Source: Eledone cirrhosa
Taxonomy: Eukaryota
NCBI GenBank assembly: GCA_964016885.1
Contig: OZ024744.1
Location: 54,312,001-54,376,000 of the forward strand
Direction of reading: 5' to 3'
Length of the DNA: 64,000 nucleotides
Shown: positions 1 through 64,000 of the stretch, in pieces
Position numbering within the stretch: position 1 is the first letter of the stretch
How the letters are laid out: each line of letters begins with the position of its first letter
Program-made: the position numbers and the translations under genes
The notes under the pieces: generated by a model
The model's database searches: none
What the model was told of the DNA's origin: nothing
The model's input: the letters and a program-made list of their open reading frames with translations, nothing else

Positions 1-1341
1 TATTATAGTTTCACTACTAACACCTTATGAGTTTATATCTTATTAAATACTTTGTTTGGAGTCTCATTCAACTAGTGAACCTCCTCCTCTACACACTTAA
101 TATCCGCCCCTTCTATTATACTATATATAAATTTCACCTTTATGCTCCTTTTTATGATATTATATAATATATTGATTTTACTTTTATGCTCCTTCCTATC
201 CTCCATAACCTCTCCTCTTTCTGTTCCCATTGGTCTACCATAGTTCTATTTAGAGTCCTTTTATTTGATAACGTTATTCGACTGAACGAAGCATATTTTG
301 CTCTATTCTTGATAATTTTATTGAGATATCTTAAACTTATACGGTTTTGATGACTTAAACACTAGCCAATTTTGAAGTGACTAAATATGTATTTTAAATA
401 CTTTTAATATTAATTAATTTAAAAAGGTTTTCTAGTCAACTCTGGTCTACATTTCTATCTTTTTTCTTTTACTTAACCGCTTGTGACACCTAAGTAAATA
501 TACTTGTTTTTGTTTTTCGATCTTCGGTTTATTTTATTTATTTTTTTACTACCACACGCTGTTTGTCTGACCATGTAATTTTATTAATATATGTCTGTAT
601 GTCAACCACGTAAATATATTTTGTAATACTTTGTGATATTTTGGTAATATTTATGCCAATGTAAAATGACTTGACCTCCGTGTATTTGTTACAATGGTAT
701 AGATATTTTTTCAACACAATTTAGTTCTTTATGATTTTTTCTTACCCTGTGTAAAACTTTATACTATTTGTTAACTTTGAATTATATGTATGATGTAATT
801 TTGTATATCTTTTGATGCCAATATATTATAATATTGTTATTATAATGTTATTATAATGTTTCTATATTGTTTATGCACACTGACAGGGAATTATATATTA
901 TATTTTATTTTTATTTTTATCTTTATTCTTATTTTTATCTTTATTATTATATTATACTGTAAACAATATATATATATATATATTTAAATACTTAATAAGT
1001 GTTAGTTTGTATTTGTACTAATGTGTATATGTATAGATATATATATATATATAGACATACATTAAGCTTTTTATTATCACCATCGATTATATTATATTAT
1101 ATTCTATATCGTACTGTAATTCTCGCATTATATTACCATTTGTGTTTCAAGTTTTTGCATTATGCAATGTGGGTTCAACATGTTAATCACTTCCTTGCTA
1201 TTTGGTCCATATCTATGTTTGTAACTGCTCACTCTTGATCTTAGCCAACTTTTCCTTGATATCTTTCCTAAGCTTTAATAGATGTATACTCCATATTCTT
1301 CTCAGTTTTTGGCTTGTATTGGCCGATAGTGCTTCTTGTAG

Positions 1342-1395
1342 CTTTACTTGCCCTGATGAGTCCTTAATAGGACGAAACATTGTTGGCTATTAAAG
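1342..1395 (+). ncRNA. Minimal type I hammerhead ribozyme, probably in the 3' end of a PLE-like element ending at the (TA)n near 1541
   Basis: cttta-ctt-gcc CTGATGA gtcct-taat-aggac GAAA c-att-g TT ggc-tat-taaag: core at 1353-1359 and 1374-1377, 5-bp stem II, stem I with a 3x3 internal loop, GUU cleavage triplet. Confidence 0.8.
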
Positions 1396-1538
1396 TCTTT
1401 TGATGTATTGAAGGCTTCTTTGGTTTATTTTTTATAATTCTTCGGCTCTGTTTAATTACATTGAGCTATATCTTATACTGTCATTTCTATAATATGAAGA
1501 GGGTGTTTAACTCCAACACACTCCAGTATTTTAATTCT

Positions 1539-1574
<36 letters not shown>

Positions 1575-1605
1575 ATCAAAAGATGGTTAAAAGAGTTCCA
1601 TGTAA

Positions 1606-1671
1606 TTTATTATGCGCATTTCAAAAACAAATATCATCATGCAATAACATTTGTGTTTTCATCAGATAAAA
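1606..1671 (-). ncRNA. Hammerhead ribozyme in the Hydra-like PLE terminus
   Basis: Minus strand tttat CTGATGA aaacacaaatgtt...gatatttgttttt GAAA tgcgca TA ataaa; self-complementary stem III ATGCGCAT. Confidence 0.85.
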
Positions 1672-2023
1672 TAGGAAGACATGATATGAAGGTTAAAAAC
1701 ACTTGTGGATAGTGCAGTTTTAAATCAACATATGAAAAGTAGTTTTAGATTGATGTGTGATATTGGGGAAAAAAATGTTTGAGAGGGGGGGGGAGGAATG
1801 AGGAGGAGATGAGAGTAAAAAGTGGAGGGGGAGGAGTATAATGAGGAAGGATGAGATAGGAGGAGAGATGGGTGATAGAGAGAGAGAGATAGCTTTTATA
1901 ACTGAGAAAAATATATTGTTTTACATAGAGAGGTTGAAACACCGTTGGAAGATAATGTATAAATTAAAAGAATTTGAAAATTAACGAAGAGAAAAATAAT
2001 GTAAAGTTAAGGTTTGTATATTG

Positions 2024-2190
2024 AAGGGTTTAATAATATGTGCGATGAAAAGAAATTGTTAATATGTATTAAGAATAATATTTAAGGGTTTAATAATATG
2101 TGCGATGGAAAGAAAATGTTAATATGTATTAAGAATAATATTTAAGGGTTTAATAATATGTGCGATGGAAAGAAAATGTTGATATGTATT
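2024..2190. repeat. 60-bp minisatellite (~2.8 copies) in the PLE 3' UTR
   Basis: aagggtttaataatatgtgcgatg...aatattt recurs with period 60. Confidence 0.9.
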
Positions 2191-2558
2191 ATTAAAAAAA
2201 CAAAAGTAATGTAAGTAAGGATATATTGTGAGATGAGCATGAATAAGTTAGATGAAAGTGAGAAAAAAATAATGAATAGAGGATGAATAATCTAACGTCA
2301 AAAAAAATGTTTATGTTTACGAAGGATTTTTTAAAGGTGATATAAAGTAAGAATATATTGTATTGTGTAATAATTGTTTCTGTTAGGCACAGTGAGAAAA
2401 GGTACAGATTAGGGGTTAGAAATTAAAAGAAAAAGAAAAGGAAAAGGATGAAAGAGAAGTGATAAATAGGAGTGATATAAAATGAGTAACAAGTATTATA
2501 TAATGTATAATAAATAACTTTGAAATAAGGTAGAAAGATGGGTATATTTTTAAAGAAG

Positions 2559-2590
<32 letters not shown>

Positions 2591-2630
2591 CCTTTGAGAA
2601 AAGGATTCTGAATTGATAAAGTTTAGGATA

Positions 2631-3987
2631 TTAGCTGTATACTTTATGGAATGTTCTGTGGAATTTATGCAAGCAGAGAGAAAACAAGTCAGTGCGTCTA
2701 TTTATTATAGAATCTAAATTAGATATAATAGTACATTTTTCATTTAGACAGAGATTGCAAGTCTTGGATAGAGAACTGTTCAAGTATAGAGAAGCAGAAG
2801 AAACCTTTTTCCAAGAGATGTTATATTTAATATTTTTGTCTTTCAAGGACCATATGAGTTCTGAGAGAGCCGTGTTGGTTCTTTTAAGTTGGTATTTAAA
2901 AGACGAATGATGATTATAAAGACGAGCTTTAAACGAAGTGGAAGTGGAGCCAAAATAGGTGAAGGAATTGGTGTCAGTTATAACTTTACATTCGTAGATT
3001 AAGTTTTTATCAAGACAATGGTTGTTGAGAGGACATTTATTTTTAGCAGGGCAATTGCAATTAAGATTAGAGAGATTATTAACGAGTGACCTAGTGTTAT
3101 CTATAGAAGGAATTGGATTGGAGAAGTTATTTGCGATAGGAATAATAGTTTCTTGATTTAGAATGGGATTAAGAACATTTAGCGAAGTTGTGTTTGACGT
3201 AGTATTTGGGTTTGCAGAAATTAGCCTAGAGTTTACAATGACGTCGGGAGTACTATTACTATTATTATGAAATTCAGTGTTGGAAGGAAGAGATTTAGTA
3301 TTTAGTATTTTATTGTTGTGTTTAGAGATAATGTTGGAAATGTTGGAGGATATCGAATAGGAAAATGTTATAGTGTGTTTGTTAAATATTTTACTATAGA
3401 TATGTGAGGGAGGGAAGCATTTATTTAAGGCACTAAAGAATAATTTAGGAATATTATTATTAATAGAGATGGAGAAAGGAGCATTATACCAGATTATGTT
3501 TTTGTATCTAGGTCTTTTATTAAAGTTATTGGAATGATCATGATTAATTATTCTACTGTAAAATCTTCTAGAATTTGTTTCTTTATTATATTTGATTTTA
3601 TCAGGATAGCCGGCTTTAGAAAGCGCGTTATTATAGTAATTGACGTTAGCATCAAAGATGTTTTTATTAGAAGACAGGTTAGATATTCTTTTTCCAATAT
3701 TACTAACTATAGCATTCTTAATATTAGTAGGGTGGTTAGATTTGAAATTAACATAATTTAGGTTCTCATTGTTTTTATAGTAAGGGTAATATAGGCCAGT
3801 GTCAAGATTAAGAGATACATCCAAGAAATTAGCTATTTTGATGCTGTTATCAAATTCAATTTTTAGGTTATGTAGGTTAAAGAGATTACGTATATTGTTC
3901 TTAATAATATTAAGGTTAACTATGTTGCAATTTAAGATAGTAAAGAGTTCATCGTCACGATAAATTCCATCGCAAAGTTGAGGAATA
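2631..3987 (-). pseudogene. Truncated PLE ORF: RT C-terminus/thumb, N/S-rich linker, GIY-YIG endonuclease
   Basis: Track ORF 2631..3824 plus in-frame upstream codons; lacks RT motifs 1-4. Confidence 0.85.
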
Positions 3988-4089
3988 TTTGATCTTATAT
4001 ATTATGTTTACTCCAGTCCTACAAACTGTAGAGTGCTTCTTATCCGATATCTACATTGCTATAGTGTACTACGATAAAACTCACCTCCT

Positions 4090-4221: not shown

Positions 4222-58261
<54,040 letters not shown>

Positions 58262-58632: not shown

Positions 58633-58829
58633 ACGAAGGAAATGTGGTAAGGAACCAGGTGGACCATAACGCACCAAAGTACTCAATACTTGAGGTAGTA
58701 GAGTGGGTAATAGGGACCAGTAAGACCCCGACAGCTGAGCTCAAGCCGTTTCGACGGCTAATTCTGGACCAAGAATTAGCCGTCGAAACGGCTTGAGCTC
58801 AGCTGTCGGGGTCTTACTGGTCCCTATTA
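58633..58829. mobile_element. Perfect fold-back with one-sided tail containing the 3' half of a hammerhead
   Basis: 58-bp arms 58708-58765 and 58772-58829, 6-nt loop; GAAA cggct-tgagctc-agctg TC ggggtc; TA flanks. Confidence 0.7.
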
Positions 58830-59112
58830 TATACATATATATATATATTTATATTTTTGAAAATATACTAGACGCTGACGGATTCGCTCCGTAAATATAC
58901 CTTTAATACCAAATTTCTATATCATGACGACCATCGTTATAACTAAAATCTAATCTTATATACACACGTACACAGAGGATACACAGAGAAACTCACGCTC
59001 ACACACGCACACAGAACCTAACACACACACACTCAAAAAGGCACCATCTGACAAACACACCCAAACAGGTAAACGATAAAGTTATATACAACCCCATACA
59101 CCTATATGTATA

Positions 59113-60044
59113 CATCAACAAACACATAACACCAACATCACTTCACTTATATATGTACACACTATTTTATACATCAGCTCCACCATACACATTACATAAA
59201 CTTCCATGTATATAAATATACAATTTAATGTCGATTTGATGTTAATGTTGAAAGACGTGTAATAGTTTTCTGTACAGACTAACTTTCGATATACCACTTG
59301 TTGGTGTGTCTGATGGTGTGTCTGACTCAGAGATAAAGTTCTATACAGCAGTCTTAACTGGAATAAGTAAGGATGAAATAATAAGAAACCTTTCCTTTAC
59401 CACCATTCCAATATCCCTAAGTATCGAGGTTAATAAAATATTTCTCCTGGTTTATGTTAGGGAGTTTGTAATATAAAGTTTGATATTCTTGACAGAATTA
59501 AGTCGTTTATATGTTACTGTTAAAAACATTAAATAATTTACTGTACAATTTAATAGTTAAATAGTTTAAATTCACACGTTTTAAAAGTACGTTTAGGCTT
59601 GATTGGTGAACTAAGAGGAGATTCAGTGGAACGGTCATCGGGAAAATATATTGAGAATATTAGCAAACTTATATATGTAGAGGAAAATAACAAGTCAAAC
59701 GAAATAAAGTAATGTCTTACCCAATATATATCAATATAATATTTTAGAGGTAATACCTTTTCTTGAATTGTGAAGCAGAAACGGTTCGAAACAATAACAA
59801 ACGATCTATCTGTTCTTCCTTAACTGGCCTATATGAGTGTCTCTGAGTCAGACAAACCAACAAATGGTATATCGAAAGTTAGTCTGTACAGAAAACTATT
59901 ACACGTGTTTCAACATTAACATCAAATCGACATTAAATTGTATATTTGTATACATGGAAGTTTATGTTTATGGTGGAGCTGATGTATAAAATAGTGTGTA
60001 CATATATAAGTGAAATGATGTTGGTGTTATGTGTATGTTGATGT
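59113..60044. repeat. Inverted duplication of array-derived sequence
   Basis: ~59841-60044 is the reverse complement of ~59113-59332 with small indels. Confidence 0.85.
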
Positions 60045-60529
60045 GTTGGTGTAAATGGTAGCACAGTGGTCCGGATAACCAAAGATGTGTGTTCGACTCC
60101 CATGTACGTCAATACTCATCTTTTTCCATTTCTCCGAGGGTTCTTAACACCACTATCAGGCTAAATAATTTCTTTAATTTCTTTAGTCAAAATACGGCGA
60201 TAGCTTACATTTCTAATAATTTCAAACCAACTCGCTGTTTCGAAAATATTCTTACTTGACATTACAGTCGCTAAGTTTATAGCTTCTAATTTAAACGGAA
60301 AAAGACGGGTGATGTGTTGGCGTAAATGGTAGCACAGTGGTCCTGATAACCAAAGATGTGGGTTCGACTCCTATGTACGTCATTACTCATCTTTTTCCAT
60401 TTCTCCGAGGGTTCTTAACCCCACTATCAGGCTAAATAATTTCTTTAATTTCTTTAGTCAAAATACGGCGATAGCTTACATTTCTAATAATTTCAAACCA
60501 ACTCGCTGTTTGGAAAATATTCTTACTTG

Positions 60530-60530
<1 letters not shown>
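60039..60530 (+). mobile_element. Partial tandem (271-bp period) of a tRNA-like-headed element
   Basis: tRNA-like segments 60039-60112 and 60310-60383 (acceptor tgatgtg/tacgtca, T arm gtggg-ttcgact-cctat), TTTTT shortly after, ends in TA. Confidence 0.7.
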
Positions 60531-60561
<31 letters not shown>

Positions 60562-60678
60562 TTGGGAGTCTGGGACCACCCGTGTAACCTATCATAGTTG
60601 AAGTGTTGATCTGCAGTCGGGATCTGATTGATCAACCCCGAGCTGATCGTTATAGAATGAATTGTAATACGAAATAAT

Positions 60679-60863
60679 TGTTTCTACTTTAGGCACAAGG
60701 CCAGCAATTACCCAGTGCATTACTGGTACTTTATTTTATCGACCCCGTAAGGATGAAAGGCAAAGTCAACCTCGGCGGGATTTGAACTCAGATCGTAAAG
60801 GGACGTAACTATGCTGGAAAGCATGGCGTCTGACCCTCTACCGATACTGCCAATCCACCGCCC
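60679..60863 (-). mobile_element. Meta-domain-like tRNA SINE with 17-bp TSD
   Basis: TSD ttgtaatacgaaataat at 60662-60678 and 60864-60880; homologous to 47087-47274. Confidence 0.88.
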
Positions 60864-60956
60864 TTGTAATACGAAATAATGTTTCATGCGAAGCTACAAC
60901 TCTTATTGTCACTCCCCCCCCCACACCTCACTCTCTCTCTCTCTCTTTCTTTATTC

Positions 60957-61002
<46 letters not shown>

Positions 61003-61207
61003 CGACACAGACACACACATATATATATATATATATGCACACCCGTACACTAACATACAGGCATACACACACACCTCTCCGTATAAAACAAGAGCTGAAA
61101 AATATATTTCAACATGTGAACCCCCCCCCCCCCCCCACACACACACACACAAACACACATTCCTCCTGACCGATTCATTTCCATTATCACAACAATGAAC
61201 AACTTTG

Positions 61208-61249
<42 letters not shown>

Positions 61250-61767
61250 TTGTCTTAAGGGACACCTGAACTGTTGACCTCTCAACATGACTGCAACTCA
61301 ATCAAGCGGAAAGGGACACTCTTCGACAAACCTACATTTGGCGCCAAGCCAGTTCGCGCTAAAATCAATTTAAAGTTGCACGTGACTTCTACCGACTAAT
61401 CAAAATTGTTTTGACTACAAGAATTTTTGCAATACGAATTGGCGAGAAATTTATAGTGCTTATTCACGTGACATTCAACCAACCAACCAAATTTTAATAC
61501 CTTCCAAGCCACTTTTTTCACATAAAATAGGAAGAATTTCCAAAACTGATCAGATTAGAGCAAAAATCACGAGCACTCTATCTGAAAATTATTTTTGAAA
61601 AGCATAGGAAATGCGCAACCGGTAACAACTTAAAACTAAAACTGAATACTAACTAATACTTATTACTAATTTATACCTATTCCTAATTAAACTATTTTTC
61701 ACTGGGAAAAATTTCTCATCATTTTCTTTTCCTTTTTACTAATATATCACAACTTGTGTGTCACACC

Positions 61768-61844
<77 letters not shown>

Positions 61845-61848
<4 letters not shown>

Positions 61849-62062
61849 CCACCGAGATCGTATTTCGGCGGTGGCCAAAAACAAAGCAGAACGCAAATTC
61901 GAGATATACGGTAAGCGCTCAATGAACTAAAAGAAGACCAGAGCAATTAACATAGGTTATAGAGGCCAGACAAAATGAATACAGTGGTCGTGAAGCTATC
62001 AGCCACCTGAGCCAAGATATGGCTTGATGACCACCGTTTTCATCTTGTCTGGCCTCTATAAC
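61845..62062. repeat. Imperfect fold-back with one-sided tail between (TA)n tracts
   Basis: gttatagaggccagacaaaatgaa... (from ~61955) versus ...ttcatcttgtctggcctctataac (to ~62062). Confidence 0.65.
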
Positions 62063-62082
62063 ATATATATTATATATATATA

Positions 62083-62182
62083 TGCATACATACATACATG
62101 CATACACACATACATACATACATACATACATACATACATACATACATACATACATACATACATACATACATACATACATACA
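62083..62182. repeat. (CATA)n microsatellite
   Basis: Direct reading. Confidence 0.95.
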
Positions 62183-62747
62183 TGGTGGCTGCCAACTCGT
62201 TTTCGAGTACGGCCACTACTTTATATCCATGTAGGAGAACCTCTACTGATGCGCTGAACGAGTGTGACTTTTTAGTCCGGCCAGCGACTAGAAAACTCTG
62301 GTACAAACACTACACTTGTGACAATTATTGACACATAATGCTGGGCCCATGGTACCATGTGACGACAAGTGCAGAGAGATCTCCAGATATAAAGCAATGC
62401 CTGTGCAGTGAAGCTTTTATAGTGAGCAAAGGCACTGCACAAAGCCAGTCCCACTCTCTTAACCAAGATAATATTTACCAAAAAGAAGAAAAAGTCAACA
62501 TCATCGGATACCATCAGGGTTGCAGGTGTTATATTAGAGTATTCCTTCTCCTAGAATTCTGCCTTGACAAAGGCTAAGGGGTCATCTCACCCGGTGATTT
62601 TGGATGGCCATTGACTCTTAAGAGTTCCTTTGCCCTTTGACAGGTTTTGTTTTTAGTCCTGCAGGATGTCAAAAGTCAGCTCCTCACCAAGAAACCTTGG
62701 TGGCGTTGCCAGTTTAGTCGCCAACGACCCGACCACGAGACAGGTTG
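62183..62747 (-). mobile_element. Probable non-autonomous RTE-type element with (TGTA)n tail
   Basis: Minus-strand ggcgactaaa and aaggcag...ctaggagaaggaatactc resemble RTE 5' UTR motifs as I recall them; no ORF; unverified. Confidence 0.4.
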
Positions 62748-62796
62748 TACATACATACACATATATATATATATATATACATATATATATACATAT

Positions 62797-62869
<73 letters not shown>

Positions 62870-62875
62870 TATATG

Positions 62876-62909
<34 letters not shown>

Positions 62910-63102
62910 AGCTATCGCGATGTTTTGACTAAAGGAATTAAAGAAATTATTTAGCCTGATAGTGGGGTTAAGAACCCTCTGAGAAATGGAAAAAGACGAG
63001 TATTGACGTACATACTCGTCTTTTTCCATTTCTCCGAGGGTTCTTAACCCCACTATCAGGCTAAATAATTTCTTTAATTCCTTTAGTCAAAACATGGCGA
63101 TA
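62910..63102. repeat. Fold-back copy of the body of the 60.0-60.5 kb element
   Basis: Arms ~62913-63003 and 63012-63102, spacer tgacgtac; TA flanks. Confidence 0.88.
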
Positions 63103-63112
63103 TATATATATA

Positions 63113-64000
63113 TTCGTTTTGCAAGGTTGTTTTGATATGAAATCGTGTGTCAAAACAAATATTGTTATACTTGGGGAGGGTCATATTGTTGTAATAATAT
63201 TGCCAGAAATAATAACAGGTCACACTCACTGTTTGGTTGTTTTCCCTTCTGCATCTTTTATATCATCATAGTTAATTTTATTGTGTTGCATTGTAATGTT
63301 CACGCCATTTTTTTTTTGTCTCCGTCTCTGCGCATGCGTTTGCGTGTGTGTATAATGTTTGGTGTGTGTGTTCACGCGTGGGTGTATGTGTTTTTGTTTT
63401 TGTTTTTGTACTCTATCTTTGTTTACTAGTATGTGTTTATATGTTTGTTGTTATTGTACTTGTATATATATATATTTATTTATATTTCTCTTAAGTCAGT
63501 ATTGTTTGTTTGGGTATGGTTGTTGTTGTTATTCCATTTGTTTTTTCTGTTTAACTTTGGTTTTCTAAGCTCTATTTCGCTCGATTCTCTGATTTGCCTA
63601 CCTGTTGGGTCATTTCTATGTTTAGATATTATTTTAATTTCTATGTTGTCTATATTACCGTGATATATTTGTCTGGTGTGTTCGTATAGTACTCAACATT
63701 ATTTTTGTCCTTTTAATTCCTCTCAGTGTTGGTCGATTCTTTCTCCTATGCTTTGAGCTGTCTCACCTATGTATGTCGTTGTCATGTTTCTGCAAGTACC
63801 CTCTGTACATCTTATGCTATAGACTACATTTCTAGTTTTACAGTTTATCTGGGGGTTTACTTTACATATAACACATTTCCTATTAGATACAGTGGGCTTT
63901 TTTAAAGGATATGTTTTGCTGATCAGGGATTTTATGGTAGTTCCTGGCTTTTCTACCACTTTAAGCTTTAAGTGGGTCTTTCTTAGGGCCTTTCTACATT
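63113..64000 (-). mobile_element. 3' part of a decayed PLE related to the 26.3-29.8 kb element (runs off window)
   Basis: VEKPGTTIKSLISKTYP...NCKTRNVVYSIRC...YIGETAQSIGERIDQH*, further in-frame stops, KPKLNRK, terminal MTLPKYNNI segment. Confidence 0.9.

Follow-up and report, generated by a model that had tools for sequence, protein, structure and literature searches.

The element at 60039-60530 of the window, by which we mean the whole analysed stretch of 64,000 nucleotides from Eledone cirrhosa (contig OZ024744.1), combines a tRNA-like domain with insertion structures of the kind known from Penelope-like elements (PLEs), and it raises the question of which machinery copies it and what the tRNA-like domain is for. 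The original prediction was a non-autonomous, ribozyme-less PLE passenger, in which processing by RNase P and RNase Z takes the place of a hammerhead and defines the monomers. The architectural part of this reading stands, in view of 5' truncation, staggered 3' ends joined to TA, tandems and fold-backs with their tails outward; the processing part does not stand as a general rule. The explanation which we consider probable, if only modestly so, is that of a non-coding retroelement, about 271 nt long and high in copy number, for which a PLE provides the reverse transcriptase (RT) and GIY-YIG endonuclease in trans, and in which the tRNA-like domain acts as promoter and structure. A role of this domain as promoter is more likely than one as cutting signal.

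The features of the locus are collected in Table 1. TRF finds at 60039-60530 the anticipated 271-bp partial tandem, with 1.8 copies and 96% matches, followed directly by a TA run. Over 224 aligned positions its copies A and B show 8 differences, one of which concerns the first base of the TA flank, and junction-spanning contigs occur in the public runs X1 (a diverged contig, 60174-60371) and X5 (one contig). No open reading frame of at least 100 aa overlaps 60039-60530 and the unit is 271 nt long, so it does not encode the RT and the GIY-YIG domains of an autonomous PLE. On the 5' side the tandem adjoins an inverted duplicate of host DNA, whose arms are 97% and 96% complementary and which, judging from the similar divergence, probably arose together with it in a single insertion. 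We also considered a PLE origin for the DNA upstream of 60039, in the sense of a template switch from PLE to passenger, but this DNA proved instead to be an array of recurrent exon-like units of 60 and 66 nt. As to the prediction that the tandem starts at the 5' end of the tRNA, the Rfam position +1 lies at 60040, one base inside the tandem, and in this the claim is borne out; the junction itself is a 6-nt microhomology, and 13 copies of the host sequence have the same 6 bases and then depart from the element. A target site duplication (TSD) was not found for the tandem, the best shared stretch being 6-7 nt of TA/TG repeat, with the reservation that (TA)n flanks preclude judgement on a TSD.

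Table 1. Coordinates of the features at the locus, as window positions
Feature	Position	Strand	Remark
Inverted duplicate of host intron/exon-repeat DNA from 59112-59313	59848..60044	+	adjoins tandem
6-nt microhomology between inverted host DNA and tRNA -1 to +5	60039..60044	+	5' junction of tandem
Monomer A	60039..60309	+	271 nt (TRF period): tRNA-like head, trailer, body, spacer, leader arm of next head
tRNA-like domain A	60040..60111	+	RF00005, 32.8 bits; A-box-like and B-box motifs
T5 run, then CC	60121..60125	+	copy A, within trailer arm
Spacer	60263..60293	+	mainly at tandem junctions; within the unit, read depth is lowest here
Leader arm of 17-bp leader-trailer helix	60294..60310	+	lengthens acceptor stem
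tRNA-like domain B	60311..60382	+	RF00005, 31.5 bits; discriminator at 60382
Truncation/fold-back hotspot	60366..60386	+	T stem, 3' strand of acceptor stem, trailer start
Trailer arm of helix	60385..60401	+	T5 at 60392-60396
Monomer B body	60402..60530	+	three predicted hairpins; contains staggered 3' ends
(TA)n	60531..60549	.	3' end of tandem; presumed target microsatellite
Fold-back long arm	62908..63014	-	= 60372-60478; 3' end faces left into (TA)n 62761-62909
Fold-back loop	63004..63011	.	8 nt; closed by 3-nt microhomology
Fold-back short arm	63012..63102	+	= 60383-60473; 3' end faces right into (TA)n 63103-63112

The head of each unit is tRNA-derived, with RF00005 scores above the gathering score of 29 bits and ARAGORN calls at 60039-60112 and 60310-60383, and contains what we take, by eye and against consensus motifs, to be A and B boxes, as the head of a SINE would. 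It does not look like a functional tRNA gene: the scores barely exceed the gathering score, the acceptor stem has three G-U pairs, and a Ser-type anticodon stands without a long variable arm. The anticodon-loop bases vary at high frequency among reads, and the A- and B-box motifs are kept in the family despite this variation. The expected inverted repeat around the domain pairs at 15 of its 17 positions in copy B, and the four listed helix variants all keep or restore pairing in the + strand RNA. Folding gave z = -2.74 for the tRNA-like domain and, for the body, -1.75 on the + strand and -0.43 on the - strand; the whole monomer as a circle folded no better than shuffles (z = -1.27 on +, -0.79 on -). 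An amplified subfamily, present in three runs, has lost two pairs of the acceptor stem, 1-72 and 2-71 (X4 record 12 has both losses in cis), and has an A box one base shorter, as read by hand. The domain is followed in both copies by TTTTT, as noted before, and the corollary that this excludes a SINE transcript fails: the run precedes CC, and mollusc SINEs have internal T4-T5 runs followed by C that act as read-through terminators (PMC4758252).

The second structure is a fold-back of the tandem's body with (TA)n on both sides, correctly recognised beforehand, in which 89 of 91 bases agree between 62913-63003 and 63012-63102, with the 3' ends outward. Its two arms have four derived sites in common, and the left one extends to 63014 and hence takes in the last 11 bases of the tRNA-like domain. 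That an arm restarts at the trailer (63012) is true in so far as the short arm begins with the first trailer base, with the qualification that 3-nt microhomology lies at this start. Family-wide, the geometry with tails outward reproduces the reported microhomology in all eight listed opposite-strand joints, one of which also fits heads outward; rows 60366/60382 and 60369/60379 are one junction seen from two strands and were counted once. Microhomology of 2-4 nt is present at all seven distinct joints, which are spread across the 3' half of the tRNA, and in each of them the long arm extends into the tRNA. In the fragment 60291-60435 the long arm ends within 60366-60377 in 6 of 7 distinct junctions (P = 1.5e-4 if ends were uniform over 145 nt), the joint 60177/60247, at an AATT site, being left out of this count; the hotspot region has three 4-nt palindromes in copy A. 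In only two of the seven distinct junctions could the short arm begin with the first trailer base, the RNase Z site, and these include the most-read one (128 reads) and the window's own. Fold-back joints with low counts in raw reads may be library chimeras, and five of the eight rows occur only in X11.

In public reads the element belongs to a high-copy family, with 2,520 contigs in run X1 and 2,890 reads in run X11, and is also found in two other organisms (10 contigs in organism B, 4 in organism C); runs X6-X10, with small shares, were left out of all counts. Copies are 5'-truncated and, as RNA, of + strand polarity. Their 3' ends are staggered over 57 nt and fall, in the numbering of copy A, at four positions (60202, 60207, 60220 and 60259), with TA repeats after each of them, and among the 19 listed loose ends of 280 there is neither a fixed 3' tail nor a pile-up at +1. 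In X1 the depth over the spacer is 8,000-11,000 against a peak of 507,000. Pile-ups of begins and ends in X11 at 60176, 60218, 60221, 60288 and 60291 are AATT sites and were taken as restriction ends of a RAD library, so X11 depth is compared only within 60291-60435. Exact-pattern scans of metagenome_contigs, viral_contigs and genome_contigs gave no match, as expected of an animal repeat, and a literature search with three short motifs of the element gave none either.

How far does this architecture point to PLEs? PLEs are described as forming partial tandems and inverted copies with 5' truncation, as having 3' tails that are optional and as being biased towards (TA)n, and this holds for hammerhead-less clades among them as well (PMC8557442). 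The element has each of these structures: the 1.8-mer of the window, inverted 5'-truncated copies with outward 3' ends (the window's fold-back and 8 of 8 listed joints), and several 3' ends that run into a microsatellite. PLE-type ORFs are present in the window as well; Pfam reports GIY-YIG in one of three C-terminal pieces of the PLE ORF, below its curated cut-off, and a PDB search with this ORF gave no match. A pLTR fold-back in the window (49451-49939) is built in the same way, with TA adjoining its two different 3' ends. Against this reading, non-autonomous PLEs usually have 3' sequence in common with their partner (PMC8557442), and similarity to a PLE 3' end was not found among the window PLEs: none of 24 alignments of the element to 12 window regions reached p < 0.03, the lowest being 0.055. 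The predicted lack of a CUGANGA core is confirmed, since both the + strand scan for CUGANGA...GAAA and the Rfam ribozyme search (E <= 10) came back empty for the element. On the - strand there are three non-canonical near-matches, and a hammerhead-like string near 60430 was rejected, as its core deviates at positions 8 and 9 and a partner for stem I was not seen. A very divergent ribozyme could be missed, because the same scan recovered only one of two PLE hammerhead regions in a control.

Putting these observations together, we would picture the life cycle as follows. Tandem source copies would be transcribed by Pol III from the tRNA-derived A/B-box promoter; the polymerase may read through the C-followed T5 into the next unit, and such a head-to-next-body transcript would regenerate a 1.6-1.8-mer like that of the window. 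The PLE protein would then cut (TA)n and initiate cDNA within the body, at any one of several sites; a PLE RT does initiate at internal RNA sites in vitro and needs no hammerhead cleavage (PMC11167929). On entering the leader-trailer plus acceptor/T-stem helix the RT would often stall, and the cDNA end might snap back, or meet an opposite cDNA, through 2-4 nt of complementarity, which would yield fold-backs; otherwise it would cross the tandem junction and the cDNA would be joined to host DNA by microhomology. On this account the tRNA would not be an obligatory cleavage signal, and a ribozyme would be unnecessary. A plain Pol III start predicts many starts at +1, yet about half of the tRNA-bearing X11 reads extend upstream of +1 into the leader, which counts against the account in its simplest form.

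That RNase P (and RNase Z) cuts a multimeric RNA at the tRNA-like domain of a PLE passenger, in place of a hammerhead, and defines monomers or templates, is an unlikely alternative that nevertheless draws on several observations. The 5' junction of the tandem covers -1 to +5. The first trailer base opens the window's short arm, and a loose end at 60384, with 128 reads, is compatible with this site. Between 60306 and 60312 the depth in X1 increases roughly threefold (sequence variants there give the same effect), and the conserved leader-trailer helix recalls that of MALAT1-mascRNA, by which RNase P cleavage is promoted (PMC8457004). A Pol III promoter equally predicts a start at +1, and B-box conservation cannot separate the two, because the B box is the T arm that RNase P needs. 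As a general rule for defining monomers, cleavage is not supported by the junctions, five of seven being unfit for the RNase Z site, all with microhomology and all with tRNA bases in the long arm, nor by the reads, of which at least 351 in X11 plus 166 aligned ones extend upstream of +1, against about 1,050 over the anticodon arm. From the mascRNA module the element has the helix that lengthens the acceptor stem, and lacks the 5' bulge and the intact 7-bp acceptor stem: the predicted fold bulges by 3 nt on the 3' side and not at -1, as mascRNA needs, a paired trailer inhibits RNase Z (PMC8457004), and the two terminal acceptor pairs are broken in the subfamily. Besides, PLE insertion in vitro can do without hammerhead cleavage (PMC11167929), and a substitute for such cleavage is therefore not required. 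A retrozyme analogue, in which RNase P would cut at each +1, pairing of the leader arm (at the 3' end of the monomer) with the trailer (near its 5' end) would hold the -1 3'-OH against the +1 5'-phosphate in the manner of a nick and a nick-sealing RNA ligase would close a 271-nt circle, strikes us as improbable; in it the PLE RT would copy the circle past one full turn to give 1.8-mers, and pairing of the trailer would in addition keep RNase Z out and the tRNA thus in the circle.

We are similarly doubtful of a PLE passenger whose RNA stems for the most part from Pol II reading through out of host introns or from nearby PLE promoters, with tRNA fold and helix serving only RNA stability or protein binding. 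Copies often contain the leader arm, which lies upstream of the Pol III start at +1, leader variants preserve RNA pairing, and copies adjoin a host exon array and a PLE end, all as this would have it; the retention of A- and B-box motifs beside a highly variable anticodon loop, and the one full junction of the window, which begins at the head, speak against it.

An ordinary tRNA-derived SINE, moved by a microsatellite-targeting LINE (e.g. of R4/Dong or Tx1 type) and rearranged into fold-backs and tandems by post-insertion repair, likewise has little likelihood in our estimation. Such a SINE would have the same head with Pol III boxes and the same T5 followed by C (PMC4758252), 5' truncation is a LINE trait too, and the want of PLE homology among the window PLEs suits it. 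Against it stand the four different 3' ends, with no fixed tail among the listed loose ends, and the arms of the fold-backs, which repeat one and the same sequence and point outward with their 3' ends; to our knowledge, twin priming of one RNA does not yield such arms. Moreover, the tandem unit has a spacer upstream of the head which recurs in other copies, a neighbouring true SINE has a 17-bp TSD where the element shows none, and the element does not match the window's LINE copies. A DNA-level element that captured a tRNA pseudogene, whether a Helitron/Helentron piece or a MITE with 17-bp inverted repeat termini, is largely refuted and highly improbable, since for all the inverted repeat framing the tRNA, the missing TSD and the tandem arrangement, this repeat is internal and not terminal, its variants form G-U pairs tolerated only in + strand RNA, monomer A lacks CTRG on both strands, CTRR is not found at any of the four 3' ends, and the ends are staggered with one-sided polarity.

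LINEs have known SINE-type parasites with tRNA promoters, and LTR elements have small-RNA-derived ones, whereas we found in the literature no tRNA-promoter parasite of PLEs, whose known passengers carry hammerheads or pLTR sequence. If the PLE reading is true, the element would be a compact natural substrate for asking what the PLE protein recognises in an RNA without ribozyme or detectable pLTR homology, and how tandems and fold-backs form, and the hotspot would be a mappable record of stall sites of the PLE enzyme. It also suggests that some invertebrate repeats annotated as unclassified SINEs are PLE-driven. Were RNase P processing true, it would represent a new route to retrotransposon circular RNA.

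Regarding known systems, the element is best read as a new, ribozyme-less variant of non-autonomous PLE or retrozyme-like elements. Octopus OK, OR1 and OR2 are tRNA-derived SINEs. Animal non-LTR retrozymes resemble the element as AT-rich, non-coding units of small size (about 300 nt) in tandem, for which movement by PLEs has been proposed; they carry a type I hammerhead per unit, often match PLE pLTRs and have demonstrated circular RNA (PMC7229834; 10.64898/2026.07.22.740005), while the element has a tRNA-like domain, no hammerhead and no detected homology to the window PLEs. Non-autonomous Chlamys PLEs (MRC1) and hammerhead-less Naiad/Chlamys PLEs share with it partial tandems, inverted truncated copies, microsatellite targets and the lack of a canonical hammerhead; in contrast to it, the 3' end of Chlamys passengers resembles that of the autonomous partner, and the available part of the source mentions no tRNA head (PMC8557442). 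The mollusc Vhc and Snail SINEs have the same tRNA-derived head, A/B boxes and internal T run followed by C (PMC4758252), but the element differs from them in having no fixed 3' tail, no TSD found, a tandem unit with upstream spacer and frequent tail-out fold-backs. MALAT1-mascRNA also has a tRNA-like fold whose acceptor stem is lengthened by pairing of an A-rich leader and a U-rich trailer; it requires a 7-nt helix and, 5' of the RNase P site, a bulged A (PMC8457004), whereas the element has a 17-bp helix, a predicted bulge on the 3' side and an acceptor stem that decays in the subfamily. Finally, Cassandra, Helenus and Ajax likewise place a Pol III gene fragment on a non-autonomous retroelement outside the LINE-SINE system, and the Cassandra transcript extends from one 5S copy to the following one, much as we propose for a transcript from the head to the next unit; they have LTRs, PBS/PPT and integrase-type TSDs (PMC10886601), whereas the ends of the element are of PLE type.

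The unit of about 271 nt with a tRNA-like head is a real, family-wide element which is Penelope-like (PLE-like) in its architecture. The family, its polarity, truncation, staggered TA-joined ends, tandems and fold-backs with both 3' ends outward are established, and the PLE-style insertions originally predicted are borne out family-wide. In the window, which is AT-rich with many (TA)n runs and, going by its repeat motifs, presumably from a cephalopod host, the predicted partial tandem ending in TA and the fold-back of the same body were both confirmed (see table), and no further copies were found elsewhere in it. The left arm of the fold-back extends to 63014 and takes in the end of the tRNA-like domain; since four derived sites are common to both arms relative to both tandem copies, the arms come from one template or subfamily. 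The tRNA-like domains are poor tRNAs: the acceptor stem contains three G-U pairs, and the anticodon is of the serine type with no long variable arm to go with it. The D arm (60318-60334) presumably resembles that of eukaryotic tRNA-Gln, as against the serine tRNA named by ARAGORN from the anticodon.

Features of the window and 3' ends of the family (pLTR, tandem-repeat end of a PLE; X1, X4 and X11, public sequencing runs)
Feature	Positions	Strand	Remarks
Partial tandem	60039-60530		period 271, 1.8 copies, 96% matches; TA run directly after
Fold-back arms	62913-63003 and 63012-63102		89/91 bases identical
tRNA-like domain A	60040-60111		Rfam, 32.8 bits (gathering score 29)
tRNA-like domain B	60311-60382		Rfam, 31.5 bits (gathering score 29)
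3' end	60259		then TA repeats; 12 contigs X1, 1 contig X4, window's tandem
3' end	60220		then TA repeats; 94 reads X11, 1 contig X4
3' ends	equivalents of 60202 and 60207		then TA repeats; fold-back arms
PLE-type ORF	26367-29063		atlas neighbours carry RVT_1, HTH_animal, GIY-YIG
In-frame TGA	29061-29063		interrupts endonuclease part of the 26367 ORF; frame open behind
Near full-length PLE	26139-29922		RT-EN ORF with Cys-rich linker; inverted pLTR piece on 5' side; (TA)n at either end; hammerhead-like core at 29585
pLTR fold-back, 26367 PLE family	49385-49939		hammerhead-like cores in both arms (49656 -, 49734 +)
PLE-type ORF piece	2631-4001	-	typed from motifs only
pLTR-like stretch	in 1000-4001		type I hammerhead 1347-1390 (+); (TA)n end at 1542
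PLE-type ORF of another PLE	63726-63995	-	63% amino-acid identity to 26367 ORF; GIY-YIG E = 0.0063
3' end of that other PLE	63113-64000	-	only 10 nt of TA away from the fold-back
Array of 2.5-3.3 kb units	4200-59850	-	contains exon-like pieces of 60 nt (25) and 66 nt (12); its introns house most window repeats
Additional exon-like piece	59761-59847	-	upstream intron replaced ~20 nt from splice acceptor by inverted duplication and tandem
Three fold-backs, unrelated sequence	29920-30353, 58708-58829, 61952-62066		adjoin TA runs
Ordinary SINE-like insertion	60662-60880	-	17-bp TSD (60662-60678 / 60864-60880); second copy 47081-47275
LINE ORF pieces	21012-23564, 39556-42210, 43076-43978		RVT_1 then PHD finger
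Large inverted repeat (LINE region)	41400-43898
Minisatellite	48692-52234		37 nt, four blocks

A run search gave thirteen public runs, of which 10 contain the stretch in whole or in part, with no RNA run on record among them; four were aligned at 82% likeness to a circularly permuted unit (60165-60435). The run X1 gave 2,520 contigs of the family (450 at 99+% identity, 776 at 95-99%, 837 at 90-95% and 457 under 90%), X11, a RAD library labelled as the same species, 2,890 reads, and two further organisms 10 and 4 contigs, counts which do not give copy number. The begin and end pile-ups in X11 coincide with AATT sites and represent library ends. No fixed 3' tail was found among the 19 of 280 loose ends listed, the remaining 3' ones resembling diverged continuations of the element. 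The same behaviour is seen in the PLE family of 26367-29838, whose pLTR fold-back (49451-49939) has two different 3' ends beside TA. The tandem junction also recurs, in an X1 contig across 60174-60371 (24 differences, 6 gaps) and in a contig of the run X5 where the body is joined to spacer and head. In the work of Frangieh et al. (PMC11167929), a PLE protein cuts AT-rich DNA and does not require hammerhead cleavage, and its start of cDNA at internal RNA sites explains the optional tail.

We propose that Pol III would transcribe the unit from its tRNA boxes and read through into the next one, that a PLE would prime cDNA at (TA)n, beginning at internal sites, and that synthesis may stall within the tRNA helix and be resolved through microhomology. 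Mobilisation by a PLE is likely, and the complete chain of steps is put forward with moderate confidence. No similarity to the unit turned up in 12 window regions, PLE ends included (0/24 tests below p = 0.03); the fold-back and the adjoining PLE end at 63113-64000 may reflect co-insertion or a shared target. The predicted absence of a hammerhead stood: a relaxed search found no core on the + strand of the unit, the - strand yielding three near-matches of non-canonical form. Rfam, at E <= 10, reported no ribozyme across 60030-60535; as controls it detected the hammerhead at 1347-1390 and missed the cores in 49400-49960.

Depth in X11 (first mate +) drops from 1,201 over 60395-60404 to 740 over 60365-60374, levelling off at about 650-750 as far as 60325, and X1 depth falls by half from 60383 to 60372. 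For all 8 opposite-strand joints among the 15 of 19 joints listed, a geometry with both 3' ends outward reproduces the 2-4 nt of microhomology reported, one joint being also compatible with the opposite geometry. Five of these rows hold 3-20 raw reads, from X11 alone or nearly so, and may include library chimeras, one of the five types being also in the window's assembly; two of the eight rows are also present in X1 contigs. With two rows merged, one at an AATT site dropped and a 128-read loose end (60384), interpreted by hand, added, there are 7 distinct junctions in 60291-60435. The long arm ends within 60366-60377 in 6 of them (for a uniform spread of ends, P = 1.5e-4 over 145 nt and 6e-4 over 100 nt), and the short arms start, microhomology allowed, at 60373-75, 60377-81, 60379-82, 60381-83, 60383-86, 60398-401 and 60406/10-14. 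Three 4-nt palindromes cluster in this hotspot (60366-60386). All seven junctions are accounted for by synthesis that stalls at the helix and then snaps back.

The DNA upstream of 60039 is the right arm of a second inverted repeat (59848-60044 vs 59112-59313, 96-97% complementary), whose source is, as far as could be told, not a transposon, and is part of a - strand array in which exon-like units recur (25 of 60 nt, 20 of them listed, plus 12 of 66 nt), bordered by AG/GT and open in the frame read. The array at 4200-59850 has the look of a host gene encoding a long, repetitive protein rich in Ser, Thr and Lys. Element and inverted host DNA have 6 bases in common at the junction, tRNA positions -1 to +5 (+1 being the first base of the tRNA-like domain), and the break may lie anywhere within these; this single event fits an RNA 5' end near +1, made by RNase P or by a Pol III start.

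The original prediction held that RNase P and RNase Z take the place of the hammerhead and define monomers. Besides this tandem junction, it agrees with the first trailer base (60383) matching the short-arm start in 2/7 junctions, including that of the window's fold-back and that with 128 reads; the claimed restart of the fold-back arm at the trailer holds for the window's type but not as a family-wide rule. The long arm enters the tRNA in every junction, so in at least one template the RNase Z site had not been cut. Monomers defined in this way are unlikely.

The inverted repeat said to frame the tRNA-like domain was verified, leader 60294-60310 and trailer 60385-60401 pairing at 15/17 positions, and the domain folds with z = -2.74 on the + strand and -2.61 on the -. 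Among the 40 of 70 variants listed, 4/4 in the leader arm preserve or re-establish pairing of the + strand RNA (two C-to-T mend the window's mismatches, two A-to-G yield G-U pairs), the trailer arm has only a 3-T insertion (2 read starts), and the first body hairpin has variants in 2/3 loop and 0/10 stem positions; the changes are few and the pattern suggestive. A variant subfamily (X4, X5, X11) has changes at -1, +1, +2 and +6, and record 12 of X4, judged by lengths and read by hand, has both the 5' and 3' variant ends, so that acceptor pairs 1-72 and 2-71 are broken. In MALAT1-mascRNA (PMC8457004), RNase P is helped by a leader-trailer helix only where a bulge lies 5' of the cut, and RNase Z is inhibited when the trailer is paired. 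In our unit the bulge is predicted to lie 3'. We favour a role of the tRNA as promoter and structure over RNase P/Z cutting. For the sequence before +1, X11 has 166 reads aligned at 60293-60296 vs ~1,050 over the anticodon arm; 351 more depart from the reference at 60325 and continue (median 36 letters) into a variant form of this head and leader, hence about half of the tRNA-bearing reads continue past +1; no pile-up at +1 occurs among the 19 of 280 loose ends listed. Against our reading stands the rise of X1 depth from ~4,700 at 60306 to 14,600 at 60312, which could be due to starts at +1 or to alignment breaks at variants.

The T5 run had been taken to speak against a normal SINE transcript. 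This did not hold up: CC follows it, as in the internal T4-T5 runs then C of mollusc SINEs, a context reported (PMC4758252) to favour read-through, so T5 does not exclude a Pol III transcript. Transcription by Pol II read-through is quite improbable, and so, to the same degree, is an ordinary SINE; a DNA element is highly improbable.

As for known systems, PLEs that lack a hammerhead are already described, as are non-autonomous Chlamys elements (PMC8557442), and retrozymes have been proposed as PLE passengers (PMC7229834; 2026 preprint 10.64898/2026.07.22.740005), the word 'trna' having 0 occurrences in the available text of the preprint. No tRNA-headed PLE passenger was found in the literature titles and abstract starts searched; the family may already be catalogued, as an unclassified SINE, in a repeat library such as Repbase, Dfam or SINEBase. 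The unit behaves like a non-autonomous PLE; in appearance it is close to a retrozyme, yet the hammerhead that defines one was not found in it, and on the LTR side its parallels are Cassandra, Helenus and Ajax (PMC10886601).
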